Below, in pieces: positions 3,476 through 57,172 of a stretch of DNA of 64,000 bases. Under the pieces are notes generated by a model. The model made no database searches. It had not been told where the DNA came from and saw nothing but the letters and a program-made list of their open reading frames with translations. The position numbers and the translations under genes were made by a program. Origin of the DNA: Candidatus Forterrea multitransposorum CG_2015-17_Forterrea_25_41 (GTDB taxonomy: Archaea > Iainarchaeota > Iainarchaeia > Iainarchaeales > CSSED10-239); contig CP045477.1 in NCBI GenBank assembly GCA_009392915.1, positions 640,001 through 704,000 of the forward strand. The letters are read 5' to 3'. Position 1 is the first letter of the stretch; every line of letters begins with the position of its first letter.

Positions 3476-4329
3476 GATTTAAGCTCCTCACTTTTTTTAT
3501 TAATTTTTTCAATAATTGTAAATGGTCCAAAGAAATAAACTTTTCCAAAACTAAATCTTACTAAAATATCATTAATATAGATTTTAAACCTAATAGATAG
3601 ACTTTGTTCAAAATCTTTTAAAAGAAATTCTTTAAAAGAATCAAAATCTTTAATATTTAACTTAAAAGTAAAATCATTTTTTTTAATAAAAATATTATTA
3701 CTCTCAAAAAAAGTTATAGTCTGAGGATATTGATTTGAGCAATCAATAGTTAGTTCTTCAAAAGAATAAAGTTCTAAAACATGTTTAAAAATATCAAATG
3801 TTTTAGCATTAAGGTTAAAAATTAAATAATCTTCAAAATTTTCATTTTTTAAAATAGTTATATGGTTTGAAAGAATAGATGAGATGTAAGCATAATGAGA
3901 AACACTTGAATCAATTTCTTTTTTTAAAATTTCAAGATCACTTATATAAAAATTAGAACTTGTTTTTCCTGTTTTTAAAAAACTAGGATCTTGCTTACTT
4001 CTTTCAAGAAATATTTGTAAATTTTTTACAATCTCATCAACATCTTCTAAAGAACTTTTCTTTCTTGATTTTTCTAAAAGATCATTTATGTTAATTAAAA
4101 TTTTATTTTTAAGTTTAGACTCAATTGTCTGTCTTCCTTTTTCTGTTAAAAAATAATCATCATTATTCTTTTCAACTTCACCAAAAGCCACTAAATTTTT
4201 TAAAGCTCTTGAAAGAGCAGCTTTTGCAGAATTGACTGATGAATAGTTTGAAACCATTTTTGTTAAAAGATCATTATAATTTGTTTTCTTTTGACTTATC
4301 TGTAAAAGAATTGAATCTGAAAGAGCCAT
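3472..4329 (-). CDS. hypothetical protein with N-terminal winged-helix domain
   Basis: The N-terminus (AKAALSRALKNLVAFGEVEK...YFLTEKGRQTI) resembles a PadR/MarR-like wHTH. The C-terminal ~200 aa have no recognisable motifs. Translationally coupled to the MBL hydrolase. Confidence 0.4.
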   Translation of the reverse strand: MALSDSILLQISQKKTNYNDLLTKMVSNYSSVNSAKAALSRALKNLVAFGEVEKNNDDYFLTEKGRQTIESKLKNKILININDLLEKSRKKSSLEDVDEIVKNLQIFLERSKQDPSFLKTGKTSSNFYISDLEILKKEIDSSVSHYAYISSILSNHITILKNENFEDYLIFNLNAKTFDIFKHVLELYSFEELTIDCSNQYPQTITFFESNNIFIKKNDFTFKLNIKDFDSFKEFLLKDFEQSLSIRFKIYINDILVRFSFGKVYFFGPFTIIEKINKKSEELKS

Positions 4330-23448: not shown

Positions 23449-24522
23449 TTAATCTTCAATTCCTTTTTCTGTAACATTATATGCAACTTCACCATCAGGA
23501 AGTGCAGGAGAATCAACAAGCTTTGCAATTCTTTTTGAACCAGAACTTTTTCTTAAGTATAATCTTGTCTTGGAAGCGTGTTTTACAACATTTCCACCAA
23601 TAGCGTCAGTTGGATCACCAAACAAAACATCTGGTCTTGACATTACTTGGTTTGTAACAAATACAGCAACATTATAAAGTTCTGCAACCTTTTGTAAAAG
23701 TCTCATATGCTTATTTAATTTTTGTTGTCTATCAGATAATTGACCTCTACCAGTAAACTCAGATCTAAACTGACTTGTAAGAGAGTCAACAATTAAAAGC
23801 TTAATATTTTTTTCTTTAATTAAATCAACAGCTTTTTCTGCTAAAAGCATTTGATGATCACTATTATAAGCTCTTGCAACAAATATTTTTTTCATAACTT
23901 CGTCAGGATCAAGACCTTTTGCAATAGCCATCTGACTTACTCTTTCAGGTCTGAAAGAATTTTCAGTATCAATATACAACACAGAACCTTCAAGACCACC
24001 TTTGTCTTTAGGAAGTTGAGTTGTTACACATAATTGAAAACACCATTGAGATTTACCAGAAGCAAACATACCATAAACTTCAGTTATTGATTGACTTTCA
24101 ATACCACCTGCAAGAAGTTCATCAAGACTTGCAGAACCAGTTGTGATTTTATCAATCATTTTTCTTTTTTCTAAAAGAATATCAGCACTCTCAAAGCCCA
24201 TTTCAAGAGAATCTCTTGCAGCCTTAATACATTTAATTGCAGTTCCTTCACCTAAACCTGCAATTGCAACAAGTTCCATTGGAGAAGCAACAGCTATTGC
24301 TTCATAAGTATCAAAACCAGCAGCCTTAAGTTTTTCAGCAGAAGTTGGACCTATTCCTGGAAGATCTAGAATATCCTTTGGTTTTATTTTATCTTTGATT
24401 GGATCAGCATCCTTAGATACCATAGTATCTGTTTCTAAATCTTCTGAATCTAGAGAATCATCTATAGTTTCATTTACAAAATCATTATTTTCTTCATTAT
24501 CCATAATCTTTTCTTTCTTCAT
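23449..24522 (-). CDS. radA: DNA repair and recombination protein RadA
   Basis: N-terminal HhH ([17 protein letters not shown]), Walker [10 protein letters not shown], Walker B LLIVDSL, and RadA/Rad51 loops. Confidence 0.95.
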
Positions 24523-24589
24523 ATTTTCATCACATTTTAATTATTCTAAACAATTATATTAAGGAATTTAAAGAATATATGTGTTTTGG

Positions 24590-24611
24590 TAGGGGGTAGC
24601 TGGCCGAGAAA
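24590..24611. promoter_or_regulatory. GC-rich conserved upstream element (GGGGGTAGCTGGCCGAGAAA), ~80 nt upstream of the radA start
   Basis: The 11-mer TGGCCGAGAAA and its preceding G-run recur at the same distance upstream of mcm (56601-56622), in a genome that is otherwise ~70-75% AT. Confidence 0.3.
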
Positions 24612-24722
24612 AAAACCAAAAATAAGATAAACAAATAAATAGTTTTCTATCTACTATTAAAATAGCTATATAAAATATTATATTATAATAACTATAAATT
24701 ACTACAAAAAGAAAGATAAAAA

Positions 24723-26873
24723 ATGCTTGAAACAAATATTAAATGGCTTAAAGAAATTTCAGATCATGAAGTCCTAGAAGTAGGATATAAAGCACATATT
24801 TTATCAGAAATTTCAAAAGCAAATATTCCACTTCCAAGAGGTTTTGTAGTTAATTATAAAAATTTTTTTAATTTTGTACAAAAAGATAATTTAAAAGAAA
24901 AAATAAATGAAATTTTAAAAACTATTGATTATAACAACAAAGAAGATATTGAAAAAAAATCAATAGAAATAAGAACACTTTTTTTAAAACAAAAATTTGA
25001 TGAAGACTTTATTTCTGATGTCTTAAAAATGTATACAAAGCTTGGAGAATCAAAAGTTGGATTTATGAATACCAAGGTAGATGAATATACAGCTATAAGA
25101 GCATCTGTTTCTTCTGAAGAATATCCTTTAAAAGAACTTGATCCAATAGAAAGACATACAGGTTTTTTAAATATTAAAGGAAGAGAAGAAGTATTAAACA
25201 GTATTAAAGAATGTTGGGCAGATCTTTATGCTCCTGAAATCTTAGAATATAAATATAAAAAAGGTTTTGAAGAAAATAAAATACATCTTTCAATAATTAT
25301 TCAAAAAATGATACCTGGTAAAAAATCAGGAATAATGCTAACTTCTAAAAATGATTCAAAAGATACAATTGTAATTGAAGCAATACATGGTTTTGGAGGA
25401 AAAAGCCTAATTACAGAAGTTACTCCTGATCACTATGAGATTAATAAAAAAACACTAACTACAATTAAAAAAACACAATCAAATCAAGAATGGATGCTTA
25501 AAAGAATTGTAGGAAAAACTACAAAAACAAATGTAGATGTTAAAGATAGTGAAAAACAAAAATTAAATCAAAGAGATCTAAATGAACTTGCAAATATAGG
25601 AAATAAACTTGAAATGATCTATGGAACTTCTTTAGAAGTTAATTGGGTAATGGATGAAAACGAAGAATTTCTAATTGTTAGTGTAAACCCAATTGATCCT
25701 AATCTTAAAAAAATTAAAAAAAAGAAAAAAATAGATATTACTTCTTATCAAGAAAAACTAGATAGTTATAAAAAAAATTTACTTTTAGAAGGTATTGGAG
25801 TTTCAAACGGACTTTCAATTGGTATTGTGAAAATAATTAATAATAAAAAAGATCTTTTAAGAGTTGATGAGAATACAATTTTTGTAACTAAAATGACAAC
25901 TCTTGAAATGTCACAAACATTAAGAAAAGCAAAAGGAATTGTTACAGATGCTGGAAGTACAATCTGTCATGCAGCATTAATTGCTAAAAAATATGATGTA
26001 CCTTGTGTAGTACACACAGAAAGATCAACAGAAATATTAAGAGATGGACAAGCTGTTTTAGTTAATGGATTTAATGGTAAAGTGTATAGTGTTATAGGGT
26101 ACGTTGCACCACCAATTACAAAAACAGTTACAGAAACTAGAAGAGAAAATGAAGTATCTATTGAAAAAGCACAAAATAAAGATCCAGAATATCCAAAGAC
26201 AATTACAAAAATATTTATTAAAATAAATAATTTAGAAGAAGTTAAAAGTATTAACTTACCTGATATTGATGGTATAGTTTTAAGCATAGATTCTTTATTT
26301 ACAAATTATGAAAAAGGAAGTATGCTTGAAAACATTAATTTATTAGTTCCAACAATTAAAAATAAACTTTTAGAAATTACTAAAATATTTGAAGGAAAAG
26401 AAATTTTCTATAAAGTAAATACACATAAACAAAATTTAATTACTGAAAATGTTTCAAGTTATGAAATTGAAGCTATTATGGAACTTAAAAGTAGAATTAA
26501 CATTTTACTTGAAAATATTAAATCTGCAGATGAAATAATTCCTGTTAAAGAAAATACAGAATCAAAAATAGGAGTTTTAGTTGAAAATATTAAAGAAAAT
26601 ATAATTTCTGAATATATTTCAAGAGGTATAGAAAATATAACCTTTAATTTAGAAGAAATTGATTTTGTAAAAGTAAAAGAAGTTATTAAAATATGTAAAG
26701 AAAATAAAATTATGAGAATTGCAGAAATTAATTCTAAAAATACAATTTCAAATATTAAAACATATATTGATTCAAATATCAATGGAGTAATTATTAATAA
26801 AGAACAATTAGAATATAAAGATACAATTTATAAACAAGAAAGAGATCTCTTAAAGAATCTTCTTTCTGTTTAG
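24723..26873 (+). CDS. PEP-utilizing enzyme family protein (PEP synthase / pyruvate phosphate dikinase-like)
   Basis: N-terminal PPDK_N ATP-grasp domain (VGYKAHILSEISKANIPLPRGFVV) and phospho-His mobile domain (GIVTDAGSTICHAALIAKKYDVPCVV). The C-terminal ~250 aa are divergent from the canonical PEP/pyruvate TIM barrel. Confidence 0.55.
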   Translation: MLETNIKWLKEISDHEVLEVGYKAHILSEISKANIPLPRGFVVNYKNFFNFVQKDNLKEKINEILKTIDYNNKEDIEKKSIEIRTLFLKQKFDEDFISDVLKMYTKLGESKVGFMNTKVDEYTAIRASVSSEEYPLKELDPIERHTGFLNIKGREEVLNSIKECWADLYAPEILEYKYKKGFEENKIHLSIIIQKMIPGKKSGIMLTSKNDSKDTIVIEAIHGFGGKSLITEVTPDHYEINKKTLTTIKKTQSNQEWMLKRIVGKTTKTNVDVKDSEKQKLNQRDLNELANIGNKLEMIYGTSLEVNWVMDENEEFLIVSVNPIDPNLKKIKKKKKIDITSYQEKLDSYKKNLLLEGIGVSNGLSIGIVKIINNKKDLLRVDENTIFVTKMTTLEMSQTLRKAKGIVTDAGSTICHAALIAKKYDVPCVVHTERSTEILRDGQAVLVNGFNGKVYSVIGYVAPPITKTVTETRRENEVSIEKAQNKDPEYPKTITKIFIKINNLEEVKSINLPDIDGIVLSIDSLFTNYEKGSMLENINLLVPTIKNKLLEITKIFEGKEIFYKVNTHKQNLITENVSSYEIEAIMELKSRINILLENIKSADEIIPVKENTESKIGVLVENIKENIISEYISRGIENITFNLEEIDFVKVKEVIKICKENKIMRIAEINSKNTISNIKTYIDSNINGVIINKEQLEYKDTIYKQERDLLKNLLSV

Positions 26874-27354: not shown

Positions 27355-28554
27355 ATGAAAATTGCAATATTTAGTGATTGGCACTTAGGCCTTAATTTTG
27401 GCACAGATCTTGAAATGGATTCTTTTGTGCAGTTATCAGAAGCTTTCATGCAGATTAAAGAAGAAAATGTTGATTTTATAATTACTTGTGGAGATCTATT
27501 TGATAAAACTATGCCTACACATGAAGTTTATTATGAAGCTATCTCTGTACTTAACAATGTAGATATTGAAAACAAAATTAATCTAAAATCAAGACAAGAA
27601 AGAAAATTAAAAATACCAATGATAGGAATTATTGGAAATCATGAATTTAGAGGTAAAGACTTTAAATCAACTGTTGAACTTTTAGAAGTTATGAATTTTT
27701 TAAGAGTTGTACATGCAGATTCAGTAACTATAGAAAAAGAAGAAGAAAAAGTAAATGTTTTTGGTCTTTCAGGAGTTCCAGATAGATTTGCAAAAGATAT
27801 TTTAGATAAATGGAATCCTACACCTAAAGAAGGATACAATATTTTACTTCTTCATCAATCTTTTAAAGAATATCTTCCTTTTGAAAGTGAAGAAATGTTA
27901 TCTTTAAGTAACCTCCCTAAAGGTTTTGATATTATTGCAAATGGACATCTTCATTGGAAAGTTATAGAACCACTTGATGAAAAAACAAGATTTATAATGT
28001 CAGGTTCAACTGTCTCAACACAAAATAAAAAAATTGAATCAGATACTGAAAAAGGGTTTTTTATTTTAGACACAAAGACAAATAACTTAGATTTTCATGC
28101 AATTAAAAATACAAGGAAAGTTTTCTATAAAGATTTAGATCTTAAGTTAACAACTCCTGAAAAAACAATTGAAATTATAACTTTAGAGATTGAAAAACTA
28201 ATTGAAAAAAAAGAAGATAAAAAACCTCTTCTAAGAATAAGGCTTAAAGGAGAATTACTAAAAGGTTATTTTTTAAAAAGTATTAATCTTAAAGAAATTG
28301 AGGATAAATATAAAGATTATTTTTACATTTCTTTTTCAAATAAAATACAAGAACAGAAATTAAAAGAAAGTGTTGAAAAATTAAAAAGTATTGAACAGAA
28401 TAAAGGTAATCTTTTTGAAATTTCTAAAAGTATTTTCTTTGAACAGATATCTCAAACAAATATCTCCAAAGATTTTGATTATCAAAGATTTTTTGATATT
28501 CTTTATAATGGAGATTTATCTAAAGCAAAAGAGTTTATTTTAGATAAAAAATAA
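27355..28554 (+). CDS. Mre11/SbcD-family DNA repair nuclease (calcineurin-like phosphoesterase)
   Basis: Phosphoesterase motifs I-V in order: FSDWHLG, ITCGDLFD, IIGNHEF, LLLHQSF, IANGHLHW. 399 aa. No rad50 gene adjacent. Confidence 0.7.
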   Translation: MKIAIFSDWHLGLNFGTDLEMDSFVQLSEAFMQIKEENVDFIITCGDLFDKTMPTHEVYYEAISVLNNVDIENKINLKSRQERKLKIPMIGIIGNHEFRGKDFKSTVELLEVMNFLRVVHADSVTIEKEEEKVNVFGLSGVPDRFAKDILDKWNPTPKEGYNILLLHQSFKEYLPFESEEMLSLSNLPKGFDIIANGHLHWKVIEPLDEKTRFIMSGSTVSTQNKKIESDTEKGFFILDTKTNNLDFHAIKNTRKVFYKDLDLKLTTPEKTIEIITLEIEKLIEKKEDKKPLLRIRLKGELLKGYFLKSINLKEIEDKYKDYFYISFSNKIQEQKLKESVEKLKSIEQNKGNLFEISKSIFFEQISQTNISKDFDYQRFFDILYNGDLSKAKEFILDKK

Positions 28555-30271: not shown

Positions 30272-30841
30272 ATGAAATTAAAATATTTATTTATAATTAT
30301 GGTGCTTGTAACCATTTTTTCAAACACAGTCTTTTCAGAAGATGTAAATGTTGATATTAATCAGAATGTAATAATTGATATAAACCAAGAAACAAAAATA
30401 AACGTTTATTTCTTTGGAACTTCAACTTGCCCTTACTGTGCTCAGGAAAAAGAATTTTTCACAGAATATGTTAAAAATAATCCAGATGTAAGAGTTTATT
30501 ATTTTGAACTTGATACTCAAAGAAATAATTCAAAACTATTACTTGAATTTTCAAAAGCTTTTCAAGAAAGAAGCACAAGTGTGCCTATAACTTTCATTTC
30601 AGAGAAAGTATGGATTGGCTTTTCTGAAAGTATACAAGGACAAATGGAAACAATAATTAATAATTGTAGAGAAAACACTTGTAAGGATTCTTATACACTT
30701 CTTGAAAATCAAGAAGAATTTAGAGAATACTTAACTAATGACAAGTATGTTAAATATCTTGGAGAAGAAATTAAAAAAGAGAAAACAGACAAAATTGGTT
30801 TTTTTGAAAGAATAGTTACTTTCTTTAAAAATATATTTTAA
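30272..30841 (+). CDS. secreted glutaredoxin/thioredoxin-like protein (CPYC)
   Basis: Sec signal peptide MKLKYLFIIMVLVTIFSNTVFS, then a Trx-fold with VYFFGTSTCPYCAQEKEF. Paralogous to the N-terminal module of the next gene. Confidence 0.6.
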   Translation: MKLKYLFIIMVLVTIFSNTVFSEDVNVDINQNVIIDINQETKINVYFFGTSTCPYCAQEKEFFTEYVKNNPDVRVYYFELDTQRNNSKLLLEFSKAFQERSTSVPITFISEKVWIGFSESIQGQMETIINNCRENTCKDSYTLLENQEEFREYLTNDKYVKYLGEEIKKEKTDKIGFFERIVTFFKNIF

Positions 30842-30906: not shown

Positions 30907-32595
30907 ATGAATTTTAAAAAAATTATACTTTTTATTTTTTTATTTTTAATAATTACAACAACATATATAGGTAGTGTTTCAGCTCTTGAACAAAAAGAAG
31001 TAAACATCTATTTCTTTGGAACCTCAACATGTCCTTACTGTGCTCAAGAAAAAGCTTTTTTAAAAGATTTTGTAAATGAAAATATAAATGTCACTGTTAA
31101 CTATTACGAGCTTGACAAACAAAAAGAAGCATCTAAACTATTACTTGAGCTTGGAGAAGAATTTAATCAAAGAACAACAAATGTACCTTTAACTTTTATA
31201 TCTGACAAATCATGGATTGGTTTTTCAGAAAATATAAAACAAGAAATAATAAATCAAGTAAATGATTGTTCTCAAAACGAATGTAAAGATACTATTAATT
31301 TTCTTAATGAACCTAAATTCTGGGAAAAATATACAACAGATAAAGAATATGTAACAATAATTGAATCTGATAAAAAAGAAACTAGTTTTGAAAAACCAGA
31401 AATTGAAGATGTTTATGTTCATTTATTCTATGTGCCTGATTGTGCACAATGTCTTAATACTTTAGAATATTTTAAATATATTGAAAGTAAATACCCATTT
31501 ATAATTACAGAAAAATATAATCTTTTAGATCCAAAAAATAAAGAACTTTTTGAAGAATATAAAAATTTATATTCTCTACAAGTTGAAATTTTTCCAATAG
31601 TATTTATTGGAGAAACATATATTAGTGGAGAAACAAATATTAAAAATAATCTTGACAAAGAAATTGATAGATGTTATAACACAGACATTAATTGTTCATG
31701 TCCTGAAAAAACAATTCTCTCAAAAACAAATAAAATACCTTCTTCAGAAGAATATGTTTCTGGAGAAGAAAATAAAAAAATTAGTTTTTTTGGAAAACAA
31801 ATCGATCTTGGAAATAAATCTTTATTTTTAAATACTTTAATTATTGCTTTTGTTGATGGGTTAAACCCTTGCTCTTTATGGGTTTTAATGTTTCTATTAA
31901 GTATTGTTGTTTATTCTGGTTCAAGAAAGAAAATATTTTTAATAGGTATAACTTTTTTAGCAGTTACAGCAATTATTTATGGTTTATTTATAACAAGTGT
32001 TTTAAATGCTTTAATTTTCTTTTATAGTCCAATTATAAAAGTTATAATTGTTCTTGTAGCAGTTATTTTTGGACTAATAAACATTAAAGATTATTTTTGG
32101 TATAAAAAAGGAATTTCTTTAACTATATCTGAAAAAGAAAAACCTAAAATCTATGATAAGATAAGAAACATAATGAATCCTAAAAATAGTTTATTTGCAA
32201 TTATGTTAGGAACAATAATCTTAGCTGGAGGAGTTACAATTTTAGAAATTCCATGTACAGCAGGGCTACCTTTGCTTTGGGCAAACATGATTGCAAACAG
32301 TACTCTTTCAAGTACAGGATATTATCTTCTTTTAGGAATATATATGATTATTTATTTGTTAGATGAAATAGTTTTATTCTCAATAGCTATATTTACTTTG
32401 AAGATATCTAAGATGGAAGAAAAACATGGAAAGGTCTTAAAATTATTTAGTGGGCTTTTAATCTTTGGTATTGGTGTTTCCTTTGCAGTTGCAGATAAAT
32501 TTATGCAAAGTATTTTAGGAATATTACTATTAACAATAGGTTCTATTCTTTTAACATATATAATAAACAAAATATATACAAAATATAAAAAGTGA
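30907..32595 (+). CDS. fusion of secreted thioredoxin-like domains (CPYC + CAQC) with a DsbD/CcdA-type transmembrane thiol-disulfide transporter
   Basis: Signal peptide; module 1 IYFFGTSTCPYCAQEK; module 2 FYVPDCAQCL. The C-terminal polytopic domain carries the two conserved DsbD/CcdA cysteines in TM helices (GLNPCSLWVL and LEIPCTAGLPL). Confidence 0.65.
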   Translation: MNFKKIILFIFLFLIITTTYIGSVSALEQKEVNIYFFGTSTCPYCAQEKAFLKDFVNENINVTVNYYELDKQKEASKLLLELGEEFNQRTTNVPLTFISDKSWIGFSENIKQEIINQVNDCSQNECKDTINFLNEPKFWEKYTTDKEYVTIIESDKKETSFEKPEIEDVYVHLFYVPDCAQCLNTLEYFKYIESKYPFIITEKYNLLDPKNKELFEEYKNLYSLQVEIFPIVFIGETYISGETNIKNNLDKEIDRCYNTDINCSCPEKTILSKTNKIPSSEEYVSGEENKKISFFGKQIDLGNKSLFLNTLIIAFVDGLNPCSLWVLMFLLSIVVYSGSRKKIFLIGITFLAVTAIIYGLFITSVLNALIFFYSPIIKVIIVLVAVIFGLINIKDYFWYKKGISLTISEKEKPKIYDKIRNIMNPKNSLFAIMLGTIILAGGVTILEIPCTAGLPLLWANMIANSTLSSTGYYLLLGIYMIIYLLDEIVLFSIAIFTLKISKMEEKHGKVLKLFSGLLIFGIGVSFAVADKFMQSILGILLLTIGSILLTYIINKIYTKYKK

Positions 32596-35762: not shown

Positions 35763-37796
35763 ATGAACTATATTGAACTTGCAAGTAAAATTGAAGAAAG
35801 AAAAGCTATTGTTCCTGGACATAGAACTTGTCCTGGGTGTCCTATAGCCATTATCTTAAGAACAGCATATGCTGCAACTGATAAAAAAATAATAACATCA
35901 TCTGCTACATCCTGTGCAGAAGTTACAACAACAATTTATCCTTACACCTCATGGAATGAACCTTGGATTCATTCTGTTTTTGCAAATGCTGCAGCAACCA
36001 TATCTGGTGTTGAAACTGCTTATAGAGCTTTAAAGAAAAAAGGAAAGATAAAAGAAGAAATTAAATTTATGGCTTTTGCTGGAGATGGTGGAGCTTTTGA
36101 TATTGGACTTCAGAGCCTTTCAGGAGCTCTTGAAAGAGGACATGATTTTGTTTTTGTTTGTTACGATAACGAAGGTTACCAAAACTGTTTATCAATAGAT
36201 TCATTAATAATGACAGAAACAGGTCTTAAAAAAATAACTGAAATTAAAAAAGGAGAGAAAGTCTGGGCTTTTGATCAAAATAAACATTTGCCGGTACTAA
36301 AAGAATGTACAGGGGTCTTTAATAATGGAAGAAAAAGAGTATACGAAATAGAAACTATACATCAAAATATAAAAGCAACATCAAACCACCCATTCTTAAC
36401 TTTAAAAAGAAACGGTAGAGGAAAAGAAAACGAGCTTATCTGGAAAACAGTTTCTCAATTAAAGGTAAATGATGAAATTGTAACTATGAGAAAACTTTAT
36501 GATAAAGGAAAAGCATATGAATTTAATAAAATAAAGCTAACTAAAAAAGGCGATTATAAAGTAAATATTATTAATGATGTTAAGCTTCCAGAAAAATCTA
36601 CAAAAGAATTAATGTTATGGCTAGGTTTATATGTTGGAGATGGATGGATTAGAGAAGAAAGAGGAGAAATTGGATTTGCTCTTCCAGAAAATACAGAAGA
36701 GAGAAAAATACTTCTTAAGATCCATAAGAAAATATTTGGACAAGAAAATAAATCTAAAGATAAATATTACATATACTATAATTCTGTAAATATTTCAAAA
36801 TTTATTAATTCCTTAGGGTTTATGCAAGGTGCTAAAAATAAAACAATACCATCTTGGGTTTTTACTTTACCAATAGATCAAAAAGAAGAATTTGTAAAAG
36901 GTTTATTAATGTCTGATGGATATATTTATAAAAAGAAAAAAGATAGTTGTAGATATTTATCAGCAAGCAAAGAATTAATTAAAAGATTAAGACTTTTACT
37001 TCAAACAATGGATTACAGAGTAGGAAAAATAACTATTCAGAAAAAACCAAAAGGAACTTTTGTAGTTTATAGAGAAATGTTAAATGATGGAGAATACTAT
37101 AGTATTTGTTTTAGTAAAAAAGACAAATGGGATGTTAAAAAATACCCTAACCAATACAAATATCAAAATTATTTTATTGAAAATGAATATTTTGAAACAA
37201 GAAAAATAAAAAATATTATTCCTAGAGGAATTGAACAAACATTAGATTTAAGAGTTGATGGAGAACACAACTTTATTGCAGATGGAATTGTTGTTCATAA
37301 CACAGGAGCACAACGATCCTCTGCAACACCTTATGGAGCTTCAACAACTACCACTCCTGGAGAGAAAAAAGAATTTCAAAAAGATCTTGCAAGGATAGCT
37401 ATTGCTCATAAAATACCATATGTTGCAACTGCAAACCCAGGAAATCTTTTAGACATGCATGAAAAGTTTAGAAAGGCTTTTGAAAAGAAAGGGCCAGCTG
37501 TAATCATTGTTTATGCAGCATGCCCTACAAACATGAAGGCTCCTGAAGACTTAACTATTGATATTTCAAAGCTTGCAACTGAAACTAATTTTTGGCCACT
37601 TTATGAAGTTGAAGATGGAAAATATAAAGTAAACTATAAGCCTGCAAATAAAAAACCTATTGAAGAATTTTTAAAAATGCAAACTAAGTTTAAAGAAGTT
37701 TTAAAAGATAAAAATGAAATTAAAAAAATACAACAAGAAATAGATGATGATTTTAAAGAACTTCTAAAAATGGAAGAAGCTTTTCCTTTAAAATAA
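35763..37796 (+). CDS. porB: pyruvate:ferredoxin oxidoreductase beta subunit, interrupted by an in-frame intein
   Basis: Exteins give a normal ~305-aa PorB. N-extein carries the TPP-binding CPGC / GDGG; the conserved YxNTGxQxSxxTPxGAxTxTTP motif is split as ...YDNEGYQN|[intein]|TGAQRSSATPYGASTTTTPGE. Confidence 0.85.
   Translation: MNYIELASKIEERKAIVPGHRTCPGCPIAIILRTAYAATDKKIITSSATSCAEVTTTIYPYTSWNEPWIHSVFANAAATISGVETAYRALKKKGKIKEEIKFMAFAGDGGAFDIGLQSLSGALERGHDFVFVCYDNEGYQNCLSIDSLIMTETGLKKITEIKKGEKVWAFDQNKHLPVLKECTGVFNNGRKRVYEIETIHQNIKATSNHPFLTLKRNGRGKENELIWKTVSQLKVNDEIVTMRKLYDKGKAYEFNKIKLTKKGDYKVNIINDVKLPEKSTKELMLWLGLYVGDGWIREERGEIGFALPENTEERKILLKIHKKIFGQENKSKDKYYIYYNSVNISKFINSLGFMQGAKNKTIPSWVFTLPIDQKEEFVKGLLMSDGYIYKKKKDSCRYLSASKELIKRLRLLLQTMDYRVGKITIQKKPKGTFVVYREMLNDGEYYSICFSKKDKWDVKKYPNQYKYQNYFIENEYFETRKIKNIIPRGIEQTLDLRVDGEHNFIADGIVVHNTGAQRSSATPYGASTTTTPGEKKEFQKDLARIAIAHKIPYVATANPGNLLDMHEKFRKAFEKKGPAVIIVYAACPTNMKAPEDLTIDISKLATETNFWPLYEVEDGKYKVNYKPANKKPIEEFLKMQTKFKEVLKDKNEIKKIQQEIDDDFKELLKMEEAFPLK
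36186..37301 (+). mobile_element. intein with LAGLIDADG homing endonuclease (372 aa) in porB
   Basis: Begins CLSIDSL (block A Cys1) and has block B ATSNHPF (TxxH). Two LAGLIDADG motifs (LWLGLYVGDGWI, FVKGLLMSDGYI). Ends ...NFIADGIVVHN with +1 Thr. Boundaries were mapped codon by codon. Confidence 0.8.
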
Positions 37797-40469: not shown

Positions 40470-41609
40470 CTATAAGAAAATCTCATTATCTATTTTTTCT
40501 GGCAAATACTTTTTAGCAACAAAATCTAAAGATTTGTTTGCAAGAGCCTGCTGTTCAATTCTGATCTTTTTATCAATTGCAAGCTTTAGTTCTTTTTGCC
40601 AAGCAGGAGATTTAAACCAATCATAAGACATAAGCTCTTTTGCTCTCTTAACATCCCCATCTTTCATTTTTTCAGTTACTGCTTGAAGACCGTATTCTTC
40701 AACATCTGTTAAAGTCATACCAACATACTTTGCATCAGGAACTGCTAAAAACTTAGAGTGAGCTGCAAGAGCCATAGAACCACTCTTAATTACAGAATAA
40801 ATATACCAACCATAAGGATCTCCATCAGTGAAAACAACAATTGGAAGATTAAACTCATATCTTAAACGGTGAACAAGTCTTCTTGCACCTCTTGCTGCTT
40901 GACCTGAAGTTCCAATTAATATAGCGTTATGTTTTTTAGGATAGTTTTCTTCAATTAATCTACCATACATCGCAGAAGTCTCTACAACTAAAACAAAATC
41001 AGCATTAACTTCTTTAATTTCAATTTCATCAGGCTCAATTCTGGACATGATAGACCATCCACCTCTTCCAAGATTTTTACAACTAAACTCATCATTGTTG
41101 TGTTTTCTATCAATTAAAGTAATGTCACCATAAAGTGAACCTTTAGGATCAGCTTGAAGTCCTAATTTTTCTCTAATTGTTGAAACAGAATGTTCAATAT
41201 CAACAATTACATCATTAGATTCTTCTTGACCATCAAAAGTATTTTCATTAGATTTTGCAACAGTGTGCTTAAGCTCATAATAAATTTCTCTGATTGATGC
41301 TGTTTTTGAATGTTTTAAATATTCATTACATTTTTCTGTGACTAAAACAGTTTGCATAAATTTTCTTGCAGCACCAAGATTTAAGAAAGGCCTTGTAACG
41401 GTTTTATCTCCAAGTTGTATAAATCCTTTTTCTTGATCAAAATAAACGTTTGAAAGTCCTCTTACCTTTGTTGAAAAAGTTGGAGTATGTTCATGTTCTA
41501 TTTGATGAACAATATTTTCTGCAATTTCATATACTCTTTTACCTATTTCTTTTGCACCCTCAACTTCGTGCTTTTCAAGTTCTTGTTTTTTTGGTTTTTG
41601 GTTTGCCAT
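40470..41609 (-). CDS. top6A: DNA topoisomerase VI subunit A (Spo11-like)
   Basis: Toprim DGDPYGWYIY, a 5Y-CAP region with a catalytic Tyr context, and LVVETSAMYGRL. Confidence 0.9.
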   Translation of the reverse strand: MANQKPKKQELEKHEVEGAKEIGKRVYEIAENIVHQIEHEHTPTFSTKVRGLSNVYFDQEKGFIQLGDKTVTRPFLNLGAARKFMQTVLVTEKCNEYLKHSKTASIREIYYELKHTVAKSNENTFDGQEESNDVIVDIEHSVSTIREKLGLQADPKGSLYGDITLIDRKHNNDEFSCKNLGRGGWSIMSRIEPDEIEIKEVNADFVLVVETSAMYGRLIEENYPKKHNAILIGTSGQAARGARRLVHRLRYEFNLPIVVFTDGDPYGWYIYSVIKSGSMALAAHSKFLAVPDAKYVGMTLTDVEEYGLQAVTEKMKDGDVKRAKELMSYDWFKSPAWQKELKLAIDKKIRIEQQALANKSLDFVAKKYLPEKIDNEIFL

Positions 41610-41654
41610 ATTTTAATCACATTTTTATAAAGTTTTATTTTTTTTAAAAAAGAA

Positions 41655-43382
41655 TCATTCTTCAATTTCTTCTTCTTCTTCAATTTCTTCTTCTATCTTG
41701 TCATCTTTTGCTTTTTGCTTTTGATCTTCTAAATCTTCCATTTTTAATTTTTCAAGAACCATTTTATCTAAATTCTTTTGAAGTTTAGTAGCATCAGCAC
41801 CTGTTATTCTTGAAAGAGCTTGAACAATTTCAGGAGCATATTTTGCAAAGACTTTTCTTTTTTCTAATTTTTCAGCTTCTTTCTTTTTATCAATAATATA
41901 TCTTCCAAGTCTTCTTGAAACATCCATTAAAGCAAGCTTTGTTTCTGCTAAAATTTCTTCTTCATCAGCAATTGCAGATTTACCAGCTGAAGTGTAAGGG
42001 ATATGCACAGAAATTAAATTTACAAAAACAGTTACTGGAGCAGATTCAAAATTATGAATACCATATCTTTTCCAATCAATAGATTGAACAGTTTTTGTAA
42101 TTGCACAACCTCCTGCATCAAATAAAAGAGGAGATTTATTTGCATATCTTATTATTTCAGAAACTCTTACTTCTTTAGTATCTTCTTCATTATCAAGAGA
42201 ATCTTTTCTGTTTTTAGCTTTTGGAGAAGAAACACTTACAAGACGTCCTGCATTACCTCCAAAAGCAACAGCAACTTCAACTTGGAAAGCATATCCTCCT
42301 TTATAAACAGAAGGCTTTCTAGTATACACAAAACAAAATTCAGGCTCAACAATTGTTTGTAAAGACTTTTCAATAAAATTTTCACCAATTGGAACTAAGT
42401 TATTTGTGTTTGGTGCAATAAATTTAGTTTTCTTAATAGCAGATACAATTTCTTCTGCTTCTTCCCAAGTTATTTTTCTTGGATCTTTATTAATATCAAA
42501 ATGAATCATTTTTGCAATTGAATCAACTGCAGTTTGACCAAATCTATCAAAAGTTAACATAAGATAAGAAGATATTTTTCTTGCAGAAGTATATCTTGCA
42601 AGAGATAATAATTCATCAACAGTAACTCCTCTAGGGTGAGGTTTTACTTGTTTTGGTATCTTTGGTAAAGTTTTAACTATTCTTTCATATTTTGTAACTT
42701 CTTGGAAAGGATCTTGAAAAACTATAGTTGCATGAGGATTTGCAATAGCAGTTCTTCTTAAATATTCATCAACAGAACCTTGTCCTTTCTTATACTGGAT
42801 TTCTTTAAATTTAGCTTTTATTCCAGTACCTCTAAATTTTTTTTCTAAATATACTTTATTTGTCATTTTTGGAGAATTAGTTTTTGAATCAATTGTTATT
42901 TCTAAAGAAACTGCTCTTTCTTTTGAAGTTCCAGAAATAACTTTTGTTGGTTTTCCAGTTGTAATTTGTGAAAATAAAATAATTCCTGAAACACCAATTC
43001 CTTGTTGTCCTCTAGTCTGAACTAACCTATGAAATTTAGTTCCAGCTAAAAGCTTTCCTAAAGCAGAACCAATTTTGTTTTCTGGAATACCAGGACCATT
43101 ATCCATTACAGATATTTCATAATATTCTTCTCCAATCTCTGAAATCTTAACTTCAATCTCAGGTAAGATACCTGCTTCTTCACAAGCATCTAAAGAATTT
43201 GTAACTAGTTCGTGAATAATTGTTGTTAAAGTTCTTTGTTTTCCATAAAGTCCTAACATTTGTCTGTTTTTTTTAAAAAAGTCAGCAACTGAATGTTCTT
43301 TAAATTCAGAGAATAAAACATTAGCATCTATTCCATCTTTTGAAACTTGAGTTTCTTGTTTTGTTATTTTTTCATTACTCAT
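41655..43382 (-). CDS. top6B: DNA topoisomerase VI subunit B (GHKL ATPase)
   Basis: Bergerat-fold motifs (ELVTNSLDACEEAG, VMDNGPGIP, GQQGIGVSG). Acidic C-terminal tail EEEIEEEEEIEE. Confidence 0.9.
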   Translation of the reverse strand: MSNEKITKQETQVSKDGIDANVLFSEFKEHSVADFFKKNRQMLGLYGKQRTLTTIIHELVTNSLDACEEAGILPEIEVKISEIGEEYYEISVMDNGPGIPENKIGSALGKLLAGTKFHRLVQTRGQQGIGVSGIILFSQITTGKPTKVISGTSKERAVSLEITIDSKTNSPKMTNKVYLEKKFRGTGIKAKFKEIQYKKGQGSVDEYLRRTAIANPHATIVFQDPFQEVTKYERIVKTLPKIPKQVKPHPRGVTVDELLSLARYTSARKISSYLMLTFDRFGQTAVDSIAKMIHFDINKDPRKITWEEAEEIVSAIKKTKFIAPNTNNLVPIGENFIEKSLQTIVEPEFCFVYTRKPSVYKGGYAFQVEVAVAFGGNAGRLVSVSSPKAKNRKDSLDNEEDTKEVRVSEIIRYANKSPLLFDAGGCAITKTVQSIDWKRYGIHNFESAPVTVFVNLISVHIPYTSAGKSAIADEEEILAETKLALMDVSRRLGRYIIDKKKEAEKLEKRKVFAKYAPEIVQALSRITGADATKLQKNLDKMVLEKLKMEDLEDQKQKAKDDKIEEEIEEEEEIEE

Positions 43383-44879: not shown

Positions 44880-46988
44880 ATGTGCTCAATAATTGGTTTT
44901 GTAAACTACAAAGAAACTAAAAAAGAAATAATCTCTGCGTTTAAAACTCTAGAAAAAAGAGGTCTTGATGGATATGGAGTTTTTTGTAATGATAAGTGTA
45001 GTTATTTTAAAGAGATTAAAGAGATAGAATCTAAAAACATCCCTGATGATGTTGTTTTTGGACACAACTTACTTTCTATAACAGGAAATGTTTCACAACC
45101 TATTATTATTGATAAAAAAGTACTTTTATCTAATTGTGAAATATATAATTACAAAGAACTTTCTTCAAAATACAAAATAGATTCAAAAAATGATTCTGAT
45201 TTTTTACTTAAAGCAATAATAAAGATTGGAAAAAAAATATTTACTGAAATTAATGGACCTTATGCTATATGTTATTATGATGGCAGAGAAATTTATTTAA
45301 GAAGAGATTTATTAGGGATAAAGCCTTTATGGTATTCAATAGAAAAAAAATCATTTGGGTTTGCTTCAGAAAAGAAAGTTTTAGAAAATGCAGGTTTTAA
45401 AAAAATTGAATTTTTAGATCCTAGAAAAGAACTTTCTTATAATGTTTTAAAAAATAAAATTAGTTTTAAACAAATACCATTCTTTAAAATAGAAAAAAAA
45501 CAAACAACAAAAGAAAAAGTATATGAAAAACTAAAAAATGCAATTTTTAAAAGAGCATCTGGAAAACAAAAAATTGCTCTTTTATATAGTTCAGGAATAG
45601 ATTCTTTAGTTATTGCAAAAATTTTAAAAGATAATAAAATTCCTTTTAAAGGGTACTTTGCATATTCTCAAGATATTTTAAACCCTAAAGATCTTTCAAA
45701 TGTTTTAAGAACAGAAAAAGAATATGGTTTTTCTATTGAAAAGATTAAAATTTCTAAAACAGAAATTGAAAAAACATTACCTTTACTTATAGAGAGAGTA
45801 GAGTCATCAAACCCTATAAAAATTGGTGTGTCCTTACCTATATACTTTGCTTCAAAAAAAGCAAGAAAAGATGGTTGTAAAGTTATTCTTTCAGGACTAG
45901 GATCTGATGAAATTTTTGCAGGATATTCAAGATTTAAAGAATCAACTAATCTTTTAAAAGATACTTTAAACCTTTTATACCAAATGCATGAAAATGATCT
46001 TTATAGAGAAGATGTGGTTTGTACAAATAATAACATAGAAGCAAGATTTCCATATCTTGATAAAGAAGTTATTGAAGAATCTTTTTGCCTTACAGACAAA
46101 CAAAAAATTAATAATGAAGAAAATAAAGTAATCTTAAGAGAGATTGGAAAAGAAATTGGTCTTTTAAAAGAAGATTACAAGAGGAAAAAAACAGCAGCAC
46201 AATACGGAAGTGGATTTGATAAAATGATTGAAAAAATAGCAAAAGAAAATAATGTTAAACAAAAAGGAGAATTTCTTAAAAAACTTTCAAAAAAAGAAAA
46301 CCTTACTTTAGGATGTCTTTTCTCAGGTGGAAAAGATTCAAACCTTGCATACCACATTATGGCAAGACAAAATTATAAGATTGCATGCTTAATGACAATG
46401 GTCACTGAAAACCCAGATTCTTATATGTTTCAAAAAATTGATGAAAAAATACTTTCTCTTCAATCCAAAGCATTAGAAGTGCCTTTTGTTTTTCAAAAAA
46501 CAAAAGGAATTAAAGAAGAAGAACTTAAAGACCTTAAAAGATTACTTTTCAAAGCAAAAGAAAAATATTCTCTTCAAGGAATAATTACTGGTGCTATAAA
46601 AAGTAATTATCAAAGAGAAAGAATACAAGATGTTTGTAATGAACTTGGTTTAAGAATGTTTTCTCCTCTTTGGAACAAAACACAAGAAGGTGTTTTAAAA
46701 GAACTTTTAGATGATGACTACCAAGTAATGATTGTAAAAATTGCAGGACAAGGACTTTCTGAAAATTGGCTTGGAAAAGTTTTAACTAAAGAAGACGTCA
46801 TTAACTTAAAAATAATTAATAAAAAGAAAGGAATTAATGTTGCAGGAGAAGGAGGAGAATATGAAAGTATTGTTCTTGATGCTCCACTTTATAAGCAAAA
46901 AATAGTAATCACAAGTGCAAACCCAATTATGGAAAATGAAATCACTGGTTATTTAGATATTTTAAAATTAGGTTTAGAAGAAAAATGA
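44880..46988 (+). CDS. fusion protein: asparagine-synthetase-like glutamine amidotransferase (AsnB) + diphthine-ammonia ligase (Dph6/MJ0570-like)
   Basis: Residues 1-~460: Ntn-GATase MCSIIGF, then AsnB motifs SSGIDSL, LSGLGSDEIFAGY, REDV...EARFPYLD. Residues ~475-702: PP-loop LFSGGKDS, GAIKSNYQRERIQDVCNELGLRMFSPLW, GEGGEYESIVLDAP, closely matching DPH6/MJ0570. Confidence 0.65.
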   Translation: MCSIIGFVNYKETKKEIISAFKTLEKRGLDGYGVFCNDKCSYFKEIKEIESKNIPDDVVFGHNLLSITGNVSQPIIIDKKVLLSNCEIYNYKELSSKYKIDSKNDSDFLLKAIIKIGKKIFTEINGPYAICYYDGREIYLRRDLLGIKPLWYSIEKKSFGFASEKKVLENAGFKKIEFLDPRKELSYNVLKNKISFKQIPFFKIEKKQTTKEKVYEKLKNAIFKRASGKQKIALLYSSGIDSLVIAKILKDNKIPFKGYFAYSQDILNPKDLSNVLRTEKEYGFSIEKIKISKTEIEKTLPLLIERVESSNPIKIGVSLPIYFASKKARKDGCKVILSGLGSDEIFAGYSRFKESTNLLKDTLNLLYQMHENDLYREDVVCTNNNIEARFPYLDKEVIEESFCLTDKQKINNEENKVILREIGKEIGLLKEDYKRKKTAAQYGSGFDKMIEKIAKENNVKQKGEFLKKLSKKENLTLGCLFSGGKDSNLAYHIMARQNYKIACLMTMVTENPDSYMFQKIDEKILSLQSKALEVPFVFQKTKGIKEEELKDLKRLLFKAKEKYSLQGIITGAIKSNYQRERIQDVCNELGLRMFSPLWNKTQEGVLKELLDDDYQVMIVKIAGQGLSENWLGKVLTKEDVINLKIINKKKGINVAGEGGEYESIVLDAPLYKQKIVITSANPIMENEITGYLDILKLGLEEK

Positions 46989-54391: not shown

Positions 54392-56530
54392 CTAAAAAGC
54401 ATCAGGCTCTGTTGCTTTTAAAAGACCAGATCTAGGTTCATAAATATCCCCTATTTTCTTAAGCTTTGAAATAGCATCCATTACTTTATCTTTATCATGA
54501 CCTTCTTTTGTTGTAAAATCAATAAACTCTTTTGTGGTAATAGGATCTTTTGAAGATAAATCTTTTAAATATTTTAAAACAACTTTAATAAAGTTTCTCT
54601 CACTTTGAGATTGACCAGTCTGCAAAATATCAATATCAATCTTACCAGTCTCTTTATCCATAGCAACTTGCTCTAAAGAAGTTTTAAATATCCTAATTGC
54701 TCTTTGAGCATCTTCTGCATCAATGGTTTTTTTAAGTTTTATTTTAGCACTAGCTTCAGATAATCTTATAAAACCTTCAAGCTGTCTTGGTGTTGCAGTA
54801 AAACTTCTATTTTTTCTACCTAAATCTCTTAACTCAACATAATATTTTAAAATAATATCAGAAGCTTCTTTTGAAAGAACAGGACGTATATTCTGTCTTG
54901 CAAAAGCTACAAATTTTTTAAAAAGATTAGGATCAATTGAAGGAAGTATTTCTTTTTCAATATCATTTAATTCTTCTTTTGAAATAGTTTTATCTCTACC
55001 AGATAATTTTTCTGCAAGTTCTTGAGTTCTTAAAACATGTTTTGCAATATCTGAATCCATTTGTCTATCTAAAAGATCTGGAATTACAAAATAAAGATCA
55101 AATCTTGAAAGAAGAGAAAAAGGTAAGTCAATTTGTTCTAAAGGATTCTTATAAGGATCAAACCTATTGTATTTTGGATTTGCAGCAGCTAAAACTGATG
55201 TATCAGCTCTAAATTTACTATATAAACCTGCCTTAGATACAGAAACTGTAGCTTGAGCCATTGCTTCGTGAAGAGAAGATCTATCATCTGCACCAATCTT
55301 ATCAAACTCATCAATCATTGCAATTCCACCACTTGCTAAAATAATAGCACCGGCTTTTAAAGTCCAACCACCTTCTCCATATTCATCTTTCACAGCAGAA
55401 ACTGTAAGACCAGCACCAGAAACTGTTTTTCCTGCAACATATATACTTTTTGGAGCTAAAATATTTGCATATTCTAAAATTTTAGATTTACCAGTAGAAG
55501 GATCTCCCACAAGAAGAATATGTATGTTTCCTCTAAACTTTTGTTTTGCAATTTCTTTTTTAACACCACCAAACATTTGTAAGGTTACAGCTTCTTTTAC
55601 AACTTCATGTCCAAAGATATTAGGAGCAACTGATTTTGATAATAATTGATAAACATCTTCTTTTTTTGAAAGAGCTTTAATATCTTGTTCTTCTTCATAA
55701 GATATTTTTAATTCTTCATACTCTTGATCTATTTTTTCAATATGGTTTGCAACTAGATATCTTGAAAAAATATTAATGTCTCCTTTTGGAGGTCTTAATT
55801 TTAATGTACCAGTTACAATTATTTTATCTCCAGCTGAACATCTATTAACTAAATCATCTGATAAATAAACATCTATGTTAGAGGCTTGTTCTGAACCTTT
55901 TAAGTTTTCTAAAGGTTCTTGAATTTGTATTTTTTGATAATCAATAAATTTAGATTGTTCTAAATCTAAATCAAACTCTCTAGATTTACATTCATTACAC
56001 ATTACAGGTTTTACAAGTTGTTGTGTTTTTTGAGATAAAACAACTGGAGTTGAACATTTTCTACAAATATAATAAGCTTGAGTTAATTTTTCTAATTTTT
56101 CAGTAATAACTCTTATTGTTCCTTCAACAGAGACAAGATCAGTTAAATGTTCAGAACCAACTTCCCTTATTGAAACTCTGTATTCTTCAGGAAGATTAAA
56201 AAATCTTACAATAGGTTCAAAATTATCTTCAATTTCTGAATCTAAAATACCAAGATCTATTTTTTTAATAGCAACATTTGCTGCTTCAAAAATAATACCT
56301 GGAGAAGATAATAACCTTTCTGCTAAATTTAGATCAAAATCTTCTAATTTTTTATAATCAATATCTAATGATTTTTTTGTAGGATAATTAGAGGCTAATT
56401 GTTCAATTTCTTTTTTATAAACATCTTCAAAAAAATCTATAAAGAGATCAACATATTCATCAACTAAAATACTCTTTGATTCTTTAATATCAAACTCGTT
56501 TAATTCTTTTTCAAGATCTATATCAACCAT
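54392..56530 (-). CDS. mcm: MCM replicative helicase
   Basis: Zn finger (CRKCSTP...CNECKS), Walker A GDPSTGKS, Walker B IDEFDKI, arginine finger SRFDL, and a C-terminal wHTH. Confidence 0.95.
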   Translation of the reverse strand: MVDIDLEKELNEFDIKESKSILVDEYVDLFIDFFEDVYKKEIEQLASNYPTKKSLDIDYKKLEDFDLNLAERLLSSPGIIFEAANVAIKKIDLGILDSEIEDNFEPIVRFFNLPEEYRVSIREVGSEHLTDLVSVEGTIRVITEKLEKLTQAYYICRKCSTPVVLSQKTQQLVKPVMCNECKSREFDLDLEQSKFIDYQKIQIQEPLENLKGSEQASNIDVYLSDDLVNRCSAGDKIIVTGTLKLRPPKGDINIFSRYLVANHIEKIDQEYEELKISYEEEQDIKALSKKEDVYQLLSKSVAPNIFGHEVVKEAVTLQMFGGVKKEIAKQKFRGNIHILLVGDPSTGKSKILEYANILAPKSIYVAGKTVSGAGLTVSAVKDEYGEGGWTLKAGAIILASGGIAMIDEFDKIGADDRSSLHEAMAQATVSVSKAGLYSKFRADTSVLAAANPKYNRFDPYKNPLEQIDLPFSLLSRFDLYFVIPDLLDRQMDSDIAKHVLRTQELAEKLSGRDKTISKEELNDIEKEILPSIDPNLFKKFVAFARQNIRPVLSKEASDIILKYYVELRDLGRKNRSFTATPRQLEGFIRLSEASAKIKLKKTIDAEDAQRAIRIFKTSLEQVAMDKETGKIDIDILQTGQSQSERNFIKVVLKYLKDLSSKDPITTKEFIDFTTKEGHDKDKVMDAISKLKKIGDIYEPRSGLLKATEPDAF

Positions 56531-56600
56531 TAATTATCAACTTTTTTTTGTTCTATCATTATATTTAAGTTCCCAAAACCTTTTTAAAGGTAAATTGGGA

Positions 56601-56622
56601 GGGAGAGGATGTGGCCGAGAAA
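56601..56622. promoter_or_regulatory. GC-rich conserved upstream element (GGGAGAGGATGTGGCCGAGAAA), ~82 nt upstream of the mcm start
   Basis: Same TGGCCGAGAAA 11-mer and G-run as upstream of radA, in the same orientation and at the same spacing relative to the downstream gene. Confidence 0.3.
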
Positions 56623-56980
56623 GAAAAAAAAAAATTTTTTCTAAAAGATAATTTATTTTTCCTTTAACTTTTCACAAACCTCTTTTTTATTGATAACTAT
56701 TATATGTTTATAAAAAAGCAGAATTTTATATAAAGTAATTATACAGTAAAATGATTATAATTAGATTTAGTTTAGAAAACTAAGAAAATTGTTAAAAATA
56801 GATATAAATTGAACTAAATATAGTTAATTTATTTAAGTTAACGAAAAGTTTATAAAAGAAAAATTAAAAAAGAAAAGAAATAACCCTCTTTTTCTCTTTT
56901 AAAAAAGAAATAAAGGTTATTTTTTATTTTAAGATTGTATTTTTAAGTTTTAAACAAATAAGGATTCTAATGTTTTAAAA

Positions 56981-57172
56981 TTAAACTTTTTGAACATTAA
57001 TTGCTTTTTGACCTTTTTCATCTTCTGTAACTTCAAAAGTAACAGGCATACCATCTTTAATCATTTGTCCGTCAGCAACGCCTGAACTATGAACAAAGTA
57101 GTCTTTACCATCTTCTCCAGTTATAAAACCGAAATTTTTTTTAAAATTATAGAATTTAACAGTACCATTCAT
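56981..57172 (-). CDS. cold-shock protein (CspA family, bacterial type)
   Basis: MNGTVKFYNFKKNFGFITGEDGKDYFVHSS carries the RNP1-like KGFGFI core; 63 aa. Confidence 0.8.
   Translation of the reverse strand: MNGTVKFYNFKKNFGFITGEDGKDYFVHSSGVADGQMIKDGMPVTFEVTEDEKGQKAINVQKV

Follow-up and report, generated by a model that had tools for sequence, protein, structure and literature searches.

A conserved element upstream of radA and mcm in an Iainarchaeota genome, a predicted binding site for a shared regulator

Promoter elements shared by genome-maintenance genes are familiar outside the archaea, and include the eukaryotic G1/S elements (the E2F site TTTSSCGC and the yeast MluI cell-cycle box, MCB) and the bacterial SOS box bound by LexA. 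Among archaeal proteins, Ptr2 and Sta1 are activators that use upstream sites, and the characterised repressors mostly overlap the TATA box or the transcription start site (TSS). Recruitment-type activators acting just upstream of the TFB recognition element (BRE) include EarA at the fla promoter (PMC5512572) and TK0271/Tar (PMC6737238). In the Sulfolobales, a DNA-damage element (5'-ANTTTC-3', at -23 to -55 from the ATG) is bound by the Orc1/Cdc6 paralogue Orc1-2; its characterised targets are ups, ced and tfb3, and radA and mcm are not mentioned (PMC6061795). The mini-origin recognition box (mini-ORB) of Pyrococcus is the 13-bp TTCCAGTGGAACT, with the conserved cores TTCC and GAA (PMC1904270), and a G-string adjoins the ORB site (PMC1868953). 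Here we analyse a 64-kb stretch of the genome of Candidatus Forterrea multitransposorum (the window), in which an 11-mer recurs upstream of radA, encoding the recombinase, and of mcm, encoding the replicative helicase. To our knowledge, almost nothing has been reported on gene regulation in DPANN archaea.

The window belongs to the Iainarchaeota (DPANN), its closest GTDB genomes being Candidatus Iainarchaeum / Diapherotrites metagenome-assembled genomes (MAGs), and has a GC content of ∼24% (∼75% AT). Its RadA is encoded on a JGI metagenome contig of 663,621 bp, Ga0100381_1000002. The 11-mer TGGCCGAGAAA occurs exactly twice in it, both times on the + strand (Table 1). Since radA and mcm lie on the minus strand, the functional reading of each copy is TTTCTCGGCCA followed by a C-rich tract, which on the + strand is a G-rich run preceding the core (GGTAGGGGGTAGC at radA and GGGAGGGAGAGGATG at mcm). 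The core lies 79-89 nt from the start codon of radA (at 24522) and 82-92 nt from that of mcm (at 56530). The initial annotation, which had pointed out this exact pair, its offsets of 79 and 82 nt, the equal orientation to the gene and the G-run before each copy, is accurate on all these points, and its gene assignments agree with the Pfam matches to Rad51 and MCM. Very likely, each 11-mer forms the core of a ∼20-bp site recognised by one and the same sequence-specific DNA-binding regulator, predicted to co-regulate radA and mcm.

The pair is well above chance expectation. Three matches to TGGCCGAGAAA with at most one mismatch are present in the window where 0.18 would be expected, a count that no shuffle out of 100 attained; the third match (one mismatch, at 45281) is read as a chance occurrence on account of its position within a coding open reading frame (ORF, 44880-46988). 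A hand estimate for a second exact copy of the 11-mer in a window of 24.5% GC gives ∼0.003. With a position weight matrix derived from 12 sites in the clade of the window (matrix A), the mcm site scores 35.1 and the radA site 34.7, the next best match in the window being 15.5, in coding sequence. As a guard against circularity, the matrix was rebuilt from eight radA sites alone, without mcm training data (matrix B), and this gives 30.0 at the mcm site versus 16.4 for the next match other than radA. The same-contig scan covered the window and 9 kb beyond its end (locus L108; loci used for comparison carry L numbers), and in this sequence only the two sites score, so that the element recurs at at least two genes beyond chance and is otherwise rare there. 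The genes for topoisomerase VI A and B (40470-43382) and for an Mre11-like phosphoesterase (27355-28554) in the window lack the element, as does rpa in the 9 kb just past the window end, where the best scores are 10.4 (matrix A) and 10.8 (matrix B).

The two promoters have the same layout on the gene strand: TTTCTCGGCCA, the C-rich tract, an A-rich stretch, a TATA-like box and a Shine-Dalgarno (SD)-like sequence near the ATG. At radA, the ATG follows an SD-like GTGATG at a distance of 6 nt, so that a 5' untranslated region (UTR) is implied, and in the radA promoters of L002, L003, L005 and L008 the predicted TATA box, ATATAT(A/T), is found 23-25 nt after the GG of the core. At mcm, the predicted TATA box starts 28 nt after the core GG, and a further 20 nt downstream there is an alternative TATA-like sequence, TTAAATATAA. 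The site has a fixed orientation and, within narrow limits, a fixed position with respect to the BRE/TATA region: the GG precedes the predicted TATA box by 23-28 nt in the clade of the window and by 20-21 nt in the wider clade.

Conservation at radA was followed in 80 radA loci fetched from GTDB species. In L002, the closest relative (RadA 88% identical), TTTCTCGGCCAGCTACCC occupies the same position before radA, and L003-L008 carry graded variants of it (ACTCGGACA, CTCGGTCA, CTTGGCCAGCTACCCCCCC, CACTGGACAGCTACCCCCCC, ACTGGCCACTACCCC and CTCGGCAAACTACCCCCC). The sequence CTACCC(C) of the C-rich tract recurs at radA of L005-L008 and at mcm of L084 and L092. The flanks upstream of the site are clearly less conserved between L002 and the window (70/123 identical). 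In the wider clade, a logo of 35 sites reads CACCGG(C/A)A, three uninformative positions, RSYY, an A-rich stretch and TTTAWAAA; the GG is invariant (35/35) and stands 20-21 nt before the TATA box in nearly all of them. A strict form of this pattern, xCYGG(C/A)x with a TATA box 15-19 nt further on, is present in 27 of 38 Iainarchaeota and Micrarchaeota radA promoters, with 0.12 expected (Poisson P ∼1e-53), and has 10 matches on both strands of the remaining 589 kb. A general promoter element is thereby rejected, the pattern being virtually absent from other promoters in ∼590 kb of relatives. A broad 18-nt core matrix is too weak for specificity in the higher-GC relatives.

At mcm, loci of relatives were retrieved, and a scan of metagenomes for mcm gave just 18 loci. 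The site is identical to that of the window in L090 and L096 (MCM 98-99% identical), with an indel-rich stretch just upstream; it reads TACGGCCACGACCTCTCCCTTCC in L082 (88%), GTTGGCCAGCTACCCTCCCAAAAAC in L084 and L093 (77%), TCTTGGTCAACTACCCCTCCAAAAAC in L092 and L094 (75-76%), TTTGGTCACATACCC in L086 (74%) and CGCACTGGACACCTACCCCCCCGAAAAC in L088 (66%), where it stands ahead of an rpa-ORF-mcm operon. The CCTCTCCCT(C/T)CC of the mcm C-rich tract is kept in L082. When searched with matrix B, the mcm or rpa-mcm promoter is the best match in six of six mcm loci (L082, L084, L086, L088, L090 and L092; 8-10 kb, both strands). In the distant L097 (MCM 41% identical) there is a clear mcm site, TCACTGGAAACC, 24 nt before TTTATAG. 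The element is thus conserved at orthologous promoters, at radA in L002-L008 and at mcm or rpa-mcm in the six loci above. The genes upstream of radA and mcm vary among loci, and the site stays with radA and mcm rather than with the neighbour.

The sites also co-vary within genomes. In the window, radA and mcm both have CTCGGCCA (CCA after the GG); in JAQVTI01 (L004, L086) both have GGTCACA (TCA); and in JBBABY01 (L006, L111) radA has GCACTGGACA, rpa GCACCGGACA and the match at a DUF1016 gene GCACTGGACA, with ACA after the GG at all three. In CAZQEL01 (L003, L082), radA has CGGACA and mcm CGGCCA (ACA and CCA). Variants common to the sites of one genome but differing between genomes are what would be expected if the sites track the specificity of one trans-acting factor.

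As for the regulon, radA is a near-universal member, and mcm is a member in the window's sub-clade and sporadically beyond it. The gene rpa is a member in L111, with TTTTAATAAT coming 21 nt after the GG, and in L088 by way of the operon; rpa genes adjoining radA in the wider clade lack the element. The promoter module is also carried by the gene for a Bro-N protein 3' of mcm in L082 and, as a duplicated copy, by a VapB/PemK pair in L088. The matrix match at the DUF1016/YhcG gene of L111 scores 17.8 and begins within the called gene, by 6 nt, and hence the gene start or the assignment is uncertain. NCBIfam has no match for the Bro-N, DUF1016 or operon ORFs. A neighbour-clustering search for a conserved regulator gene beside radA returned only rpa and housekeeping neighbours. 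The initial annotation had proposed a shared cis-regulatory site serving a replication/repair regulon, to be abandoned if the motif proved frequent without positional bias or absent upstream of radA/mcm in close relatives; neither was found in the window, the 9 kb beyond it and the relatives compared, and a shared site is supported. Its replication/repair scope holds for radA, mcm and, in some lineages, rpa, but does not extend to topoisomerase VI, the Mre11-like protein or rpa of the window's contig, and accessory genes of relatives carry the site.

How such a regulator might act can be proposed from the position of the sites. It would bind just upstream of the BRE/TATA region at the radA and mcm promoters, with the core GG 25-28 nt before the predicted TATA start, near -55 from the expected TSS, and, across clades, at about -50 to -57. 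Binding would co-regulate the recombinase and the replicative helicase and, in some related lineages, also RPA and a few accessory genes. Transcription would be activated by aiding the recruitment of TBP and TFB, like at other archaeal upstream activating sites; activation is favoured because in the wide clade the distance from the site to the TATA box is rigid, at about two helical turns, and the site lies outside the BRE, TATA box and TSS. The word 'operator' in the initial annotation, with its implication of repression, fits this position less well, and the site is probably an activator site. We infer protein binding, the direction of regulation and the TATA and TSS positions, and the physiological signal may be DNA damage or the replication cycle.

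Several observations weigh against a shared regulator site. The TATA boxes were predicted by eye in a 75% AT genome, and the scan covered ∼73 kb of the 664-kb genome. Between L002 and the window, the radA site is 15/17 identical, little above the core promoter and 5' UTR downstream of it (60/79). Several positions differ between the window variant TCTCGGCCA and the wide consensus CACCGGCAA, and the two are taken as homologous because of the intermediate forms in L005-L008. Beyond the window's sub-clade the mcm site is patchy, with doubtful variants in L087, L089 and L112, and the mcm loci L099 and L101 have no recognisable element.

Readings that do not involve regulation of radA and mcm fare poorly. 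A site belonging to the divergent PEP-utilising (phosphoenolpyruvate-utilising; pyruvate phosphate dikinase-like, PPDK-like) gene at 24723 is rejected, as the element tracks radA where the neighbours are different and the mcm site has no + strand gene nearby. It is extremely unlikely that the sites are pieces of RNA genes or borders of mobile elements, such as 5' fragments of class II tRNAs, split-tRNA halves, small RNAs or repeats flanking a 32-kb insert. GGGTAGC-TGGCCGAG does resemble an acceptor stem and the start of a D-arm, the + strand TGGCCGAG matching positions 8-15 of many tRNA-Ser/Leu genes, and where intergenic DNA is AT-rich, GC-rich islands in it often prove to be structural RNA; but ARAGORN finds only three unrelated tRNAs in the window, and the covariance scan called for by the initial annotation finds no Rfam family at either site, at the gathering threshold or at E<=10. 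A tRNA fragment or split half is rejected, there being no T-arm or matching 3' half in the window, where T-loop-like matches occur only in the three known tRNAs, and variants in relatives such as CACCGGAAACCCACCCCC are not tRNA-like. A small RNA is likewise rejected, the folds of the two regions being unrelated (z-scores -0.96 and 0.08 at radA, -1.78 and -2.61 at mcm). Direct repeats of the 32-kb insert are rejected as well, just 11 nt being common to the two places and a repeat search finding no similarity extending past the short block; nor would an insertion border be found at a fixed TATA distance of orthologous genes whose neighbours differ. That the sites mark replication origins, as origin recognition boxes beside radA and mcm, is also very improbable. 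The motif has a loose likeness to a mini-ORB, gene orientation diverges at 24.6 kb, and ∼450 bp upstream of mcm are at ∼15-25% GC. There is, however, one site per locus and no inverted pair flanking an unwinding element, with no clustering of copies; neither the window nor any fetched locus contains an orc1/cdc6 gene; the GC skew merely tracks gene orientation; and the fixed TATA distance points to transcription.

Two readings concern the kind of regulator. The sites could be operators for a repressor with the logic of an SOS box, by which radA and mcm would be held down until DNA damage or a cell-cycle cue; we consider this unlikely. A recombinase promoter with a dedicated site recalls recA under LexA, which is established knowledge, and the module of relatives also drives the Bro-N gene and the toxin-antitoxin pair, accessory genes of a sort that is often damage-induced in bacteria. 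The site, however, is upstream of the predicted BRE/TATA region and not over the TATA box or TSS, its rigid spacing of 20-21 nt to the TATA box suits recruitment-type activation rather than steric repression, and mcm is an essential housekeeping gene. A more specific version of the shared-regulator reading, which we regard as unlikely, is that an Orc1/Cdc6-family protein (the initiator or a paralogue) acts as a transcription factor and binds each site as a single mini-ORB-like element. Expression of mcm and radA, and of rpa in some lineages, would in this way be coupled to the initiation of replication or to DNA damage, and if the element were a DPANN mini-ORB, the Orc1/Cdc6-family protein would double as a switch for the helicase, the recombinase and the RPA of some lineages. 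Such targets make biological sense, MCM being the helicase that Orc1/Cdc6 loads. Sites of the wider clade resemble the Pyrococcus 13-mer (TTCCACTGGAAAG in L043, GCAGTGGAAATCC in L010, ACACTGGAAAC in L046 and, at mcm, TTCACTGGAAACC in L097). Sulfolobus Orc1-2 sets a precedent: it is a DNA-damage regulator, recognises motifs in promoters and acts as a transcriptional activator (PMC6061795). On the other side, the base after GG is C in 22 of the 35 logo sites (GGCA, not GGAA) and GGAAA is found in 12; logo positions -8 to -5, where TTCC would fall, carry no information; both cores, TTCC and GAA, are missing from the window variant CTCGGCCA; and on the strand that would bear the G-string of an ORB (PMC1868953), the adjacent tract is C-rich. 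If the reading were true, the circuit would be a primitive one, E2F-like or SOS-like in its logic, conserved across Iainarchaeota and Micrarchaeota, and a factor that is an Orc1/Cdc6 paralogue would extend the regulatory role known in Sulfolobales to very distant Archaea.

Table 1. Coordinates of the two sites, their predicted core promoters and the genes downstream (positions in the window).
Feature	Position	Strand	Remarks
Core motif, radA promoter	24601..24611	-	exact copy, gene strand TTTCTCGGCCA; matrix A 34.7; best match of the window with matrix B
C-rich tract, radA, directly 3' of core	24588..24600	-	gene strand GCTACCCCCTACC; part of extended ∼20-bp site
Predicted TATA region, radA	24566..24580	-	gene strand ATATATTCTTTAAAT; predicted from sequence, not mapped
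radA (recombinase), downstream target	23449..24522	-	Pfam Rad51 1.1e-92, HHH_5
Core motif, mcm promoter	56612..56622	-	exact copy, gene strand TTTCTCGGCCA; identical in L090, L096
C-rich tract, mcm, 3' of core	56597..56611	-	gene strand CATCCTCTCCCTCCC
Predicted TATA box, mcm	56579..56588	-	gene strand TTTAAAAAGG; read from sequence
mcm (replicative helicase), downstream target	54392..56530	-	Pfam MCM 1.3e-80 (P-loop), MCM_OB, MCM_lid, MCM_N

Other features were seen around the two promoters. The predicted mcm TATA box lies at the centre of a 30-bp near-perfect palindrome, TCCCAAAACCTTTTTAAAGGTAAATTGGGA (56571-56600), which L090 and L096 have in identical form and which is not conserved in L082. 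Upstream of the mcm site lies an unusually long gene-poor stretch (56623-57546), very AT-rich (8-16% GC in places), whose sole gene encodes a 63-aa cold-shock-domain protein (56981-57172, minus strand); L082 has two csp copies there. In the intergenic region between radA and the PPDK-like gene, a second conserved block (24630-24672; ATAGTAGATAGAAAACTATTTATTTGTTT on the radA strand, with a small palindrome ATAG-N4-CTAT) is common to L002, L003, L004 and L008, and probably serves the divergent PEP-utilising enzyme gene (24723-26873) as its promoter or operator. In many Iainarchaeota, radA has a long 5' leader (∼100-160 nt) containing blocks that are conserved and look structured, such as TGTGAGGCGAGAAACACAAGAAATAAAACGC in L004 (∼3925-3975), L005 (∼3790-3840) and L008 (∼3925-3975), and GC..AAAGGG..GCCAAA..CTCAAAAAGC in other radA loci, e.g. 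among L009-L025; such a leader may be a cis-regulatory RNA, and the window's genome lacks it.

Among the genes of relatives, the Bro-N gene of L082 (5262-6038; Pfam 3.7e-10; also L083 and L091) has an in-frame TAG after codon 23, seen in one NCBI MAG and one JGI contig, and may be a pseudogene or a read-through gene; a homologue directly follows radA in L058. In L088, two near-identical copies of the promoter module (661-704 and 1312-1355), 650 bp apart, precede the VapB/PemK pair and the rpa-ORF-mcm operon, and the duplication looks to be tied to insertion of the toxin-antitoxin module. The rpa promoters of the window's clade share a block of their own, (C)TTACCCTTTATTAATATTTTC, unlike the radA/mcm element (L108 3930-3990, L110 3925-3990, L086 ∼850-880). 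In more distant archaea, a hint that touches on the Orc1/Cdc6 family is ACTTTCAC, which precedes the radA TATA box by ∼20 nt in loci of Methanosarcinales and in one of Thermoplasmata: the radA promoters of L052, L056, L071 and L078 (Methanosarcinales / Methanoperedens) and L080 (Thermoplasmata) have (T)ACTTTCA(C/G) ∼15-22 nt before the TATA box, which contains ANTTTC, the damage-response hexamer of Sulfolobales Orc1-2, and L059 has CTTTCTCGCC at a similar place.

Elsewhere in the window, the gene for a TPP-binding (thiamine pyrophosphate-binding) 2-oxoacid:ferredoxin oxidoreductase beta-type subunit (35763-37796) is split by an intein that carries a LAGLIDADG homing-endonuclease domain (Pfam Intein_splicing 4e-15, LAGLIDADG_3). 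A 300-nt direct repeat of 71% identity (30387-30686 and 30989-31288) corresponds to two adjacent paralogous glutaredoxin/thioredoxin-like genes (30272-30841 and 30907-32595).

The literature contains no description that we could find of this motif, or of a radA/mcm regulon (damage-response or cell-cycle) in DPANN or other archaea. The kind of feature, a transcription-factor site, is known; the instance is new and well supported, and it involves no new mechanism. A ∼20-bp site with lineage-specific variants provides a testable handle on the regulator and its regulon, and bears on whether recombination and replication are co-controlled in genomes of ∼0.7 Mb.

Compared with the ORB and mini-ORB (PMC1904270, PMC1868953, PMC4010727), the wide-clade sites TTCCACTGGAAAG and GCAGTGGAAATCC are close to the 13-bp mini-ORB and a homopolymer-rich tract follows the site; the radA/mcm site, in contrast, is single and at promoters, and is found neither around an unwinding element nor beside orc1/cdc6. 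The Sulfolobales DNA-damage element is likewise a short promoter-proximal motif common to genome-maintenance genes, and its dedicated activator has the logic proposed here. Its sequence is different, the A being absent from the TTTTTC and TCTTTC of the window and (C/T)(C/T)GG(C/A)(C/A)A being the informative core of the present sites, and so is its position, the window's cores lying 79-92 nt from the start codons. By analogy only, the E2F, MCB and SOS boxes resemble the present element in that a common site controls MCM and RAD51 of eukaryotes, or the recA of bacteria, jointly with other genome-maintenance genes; TTTCTCGG mismatches the E2F consensus at two positions, with no sequence or protein homology, and as far as we know the E2F, MCB and LexA factors are unrelated to the regulator predicted here. 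The archaeal upstream activating sites have an unrelated sequence and other target genes, and activation at radA and mcm is suggested by position; like them, the element lies immediately upstream of the BRE/TATA region, in a fixed helical phase with the TATA box.

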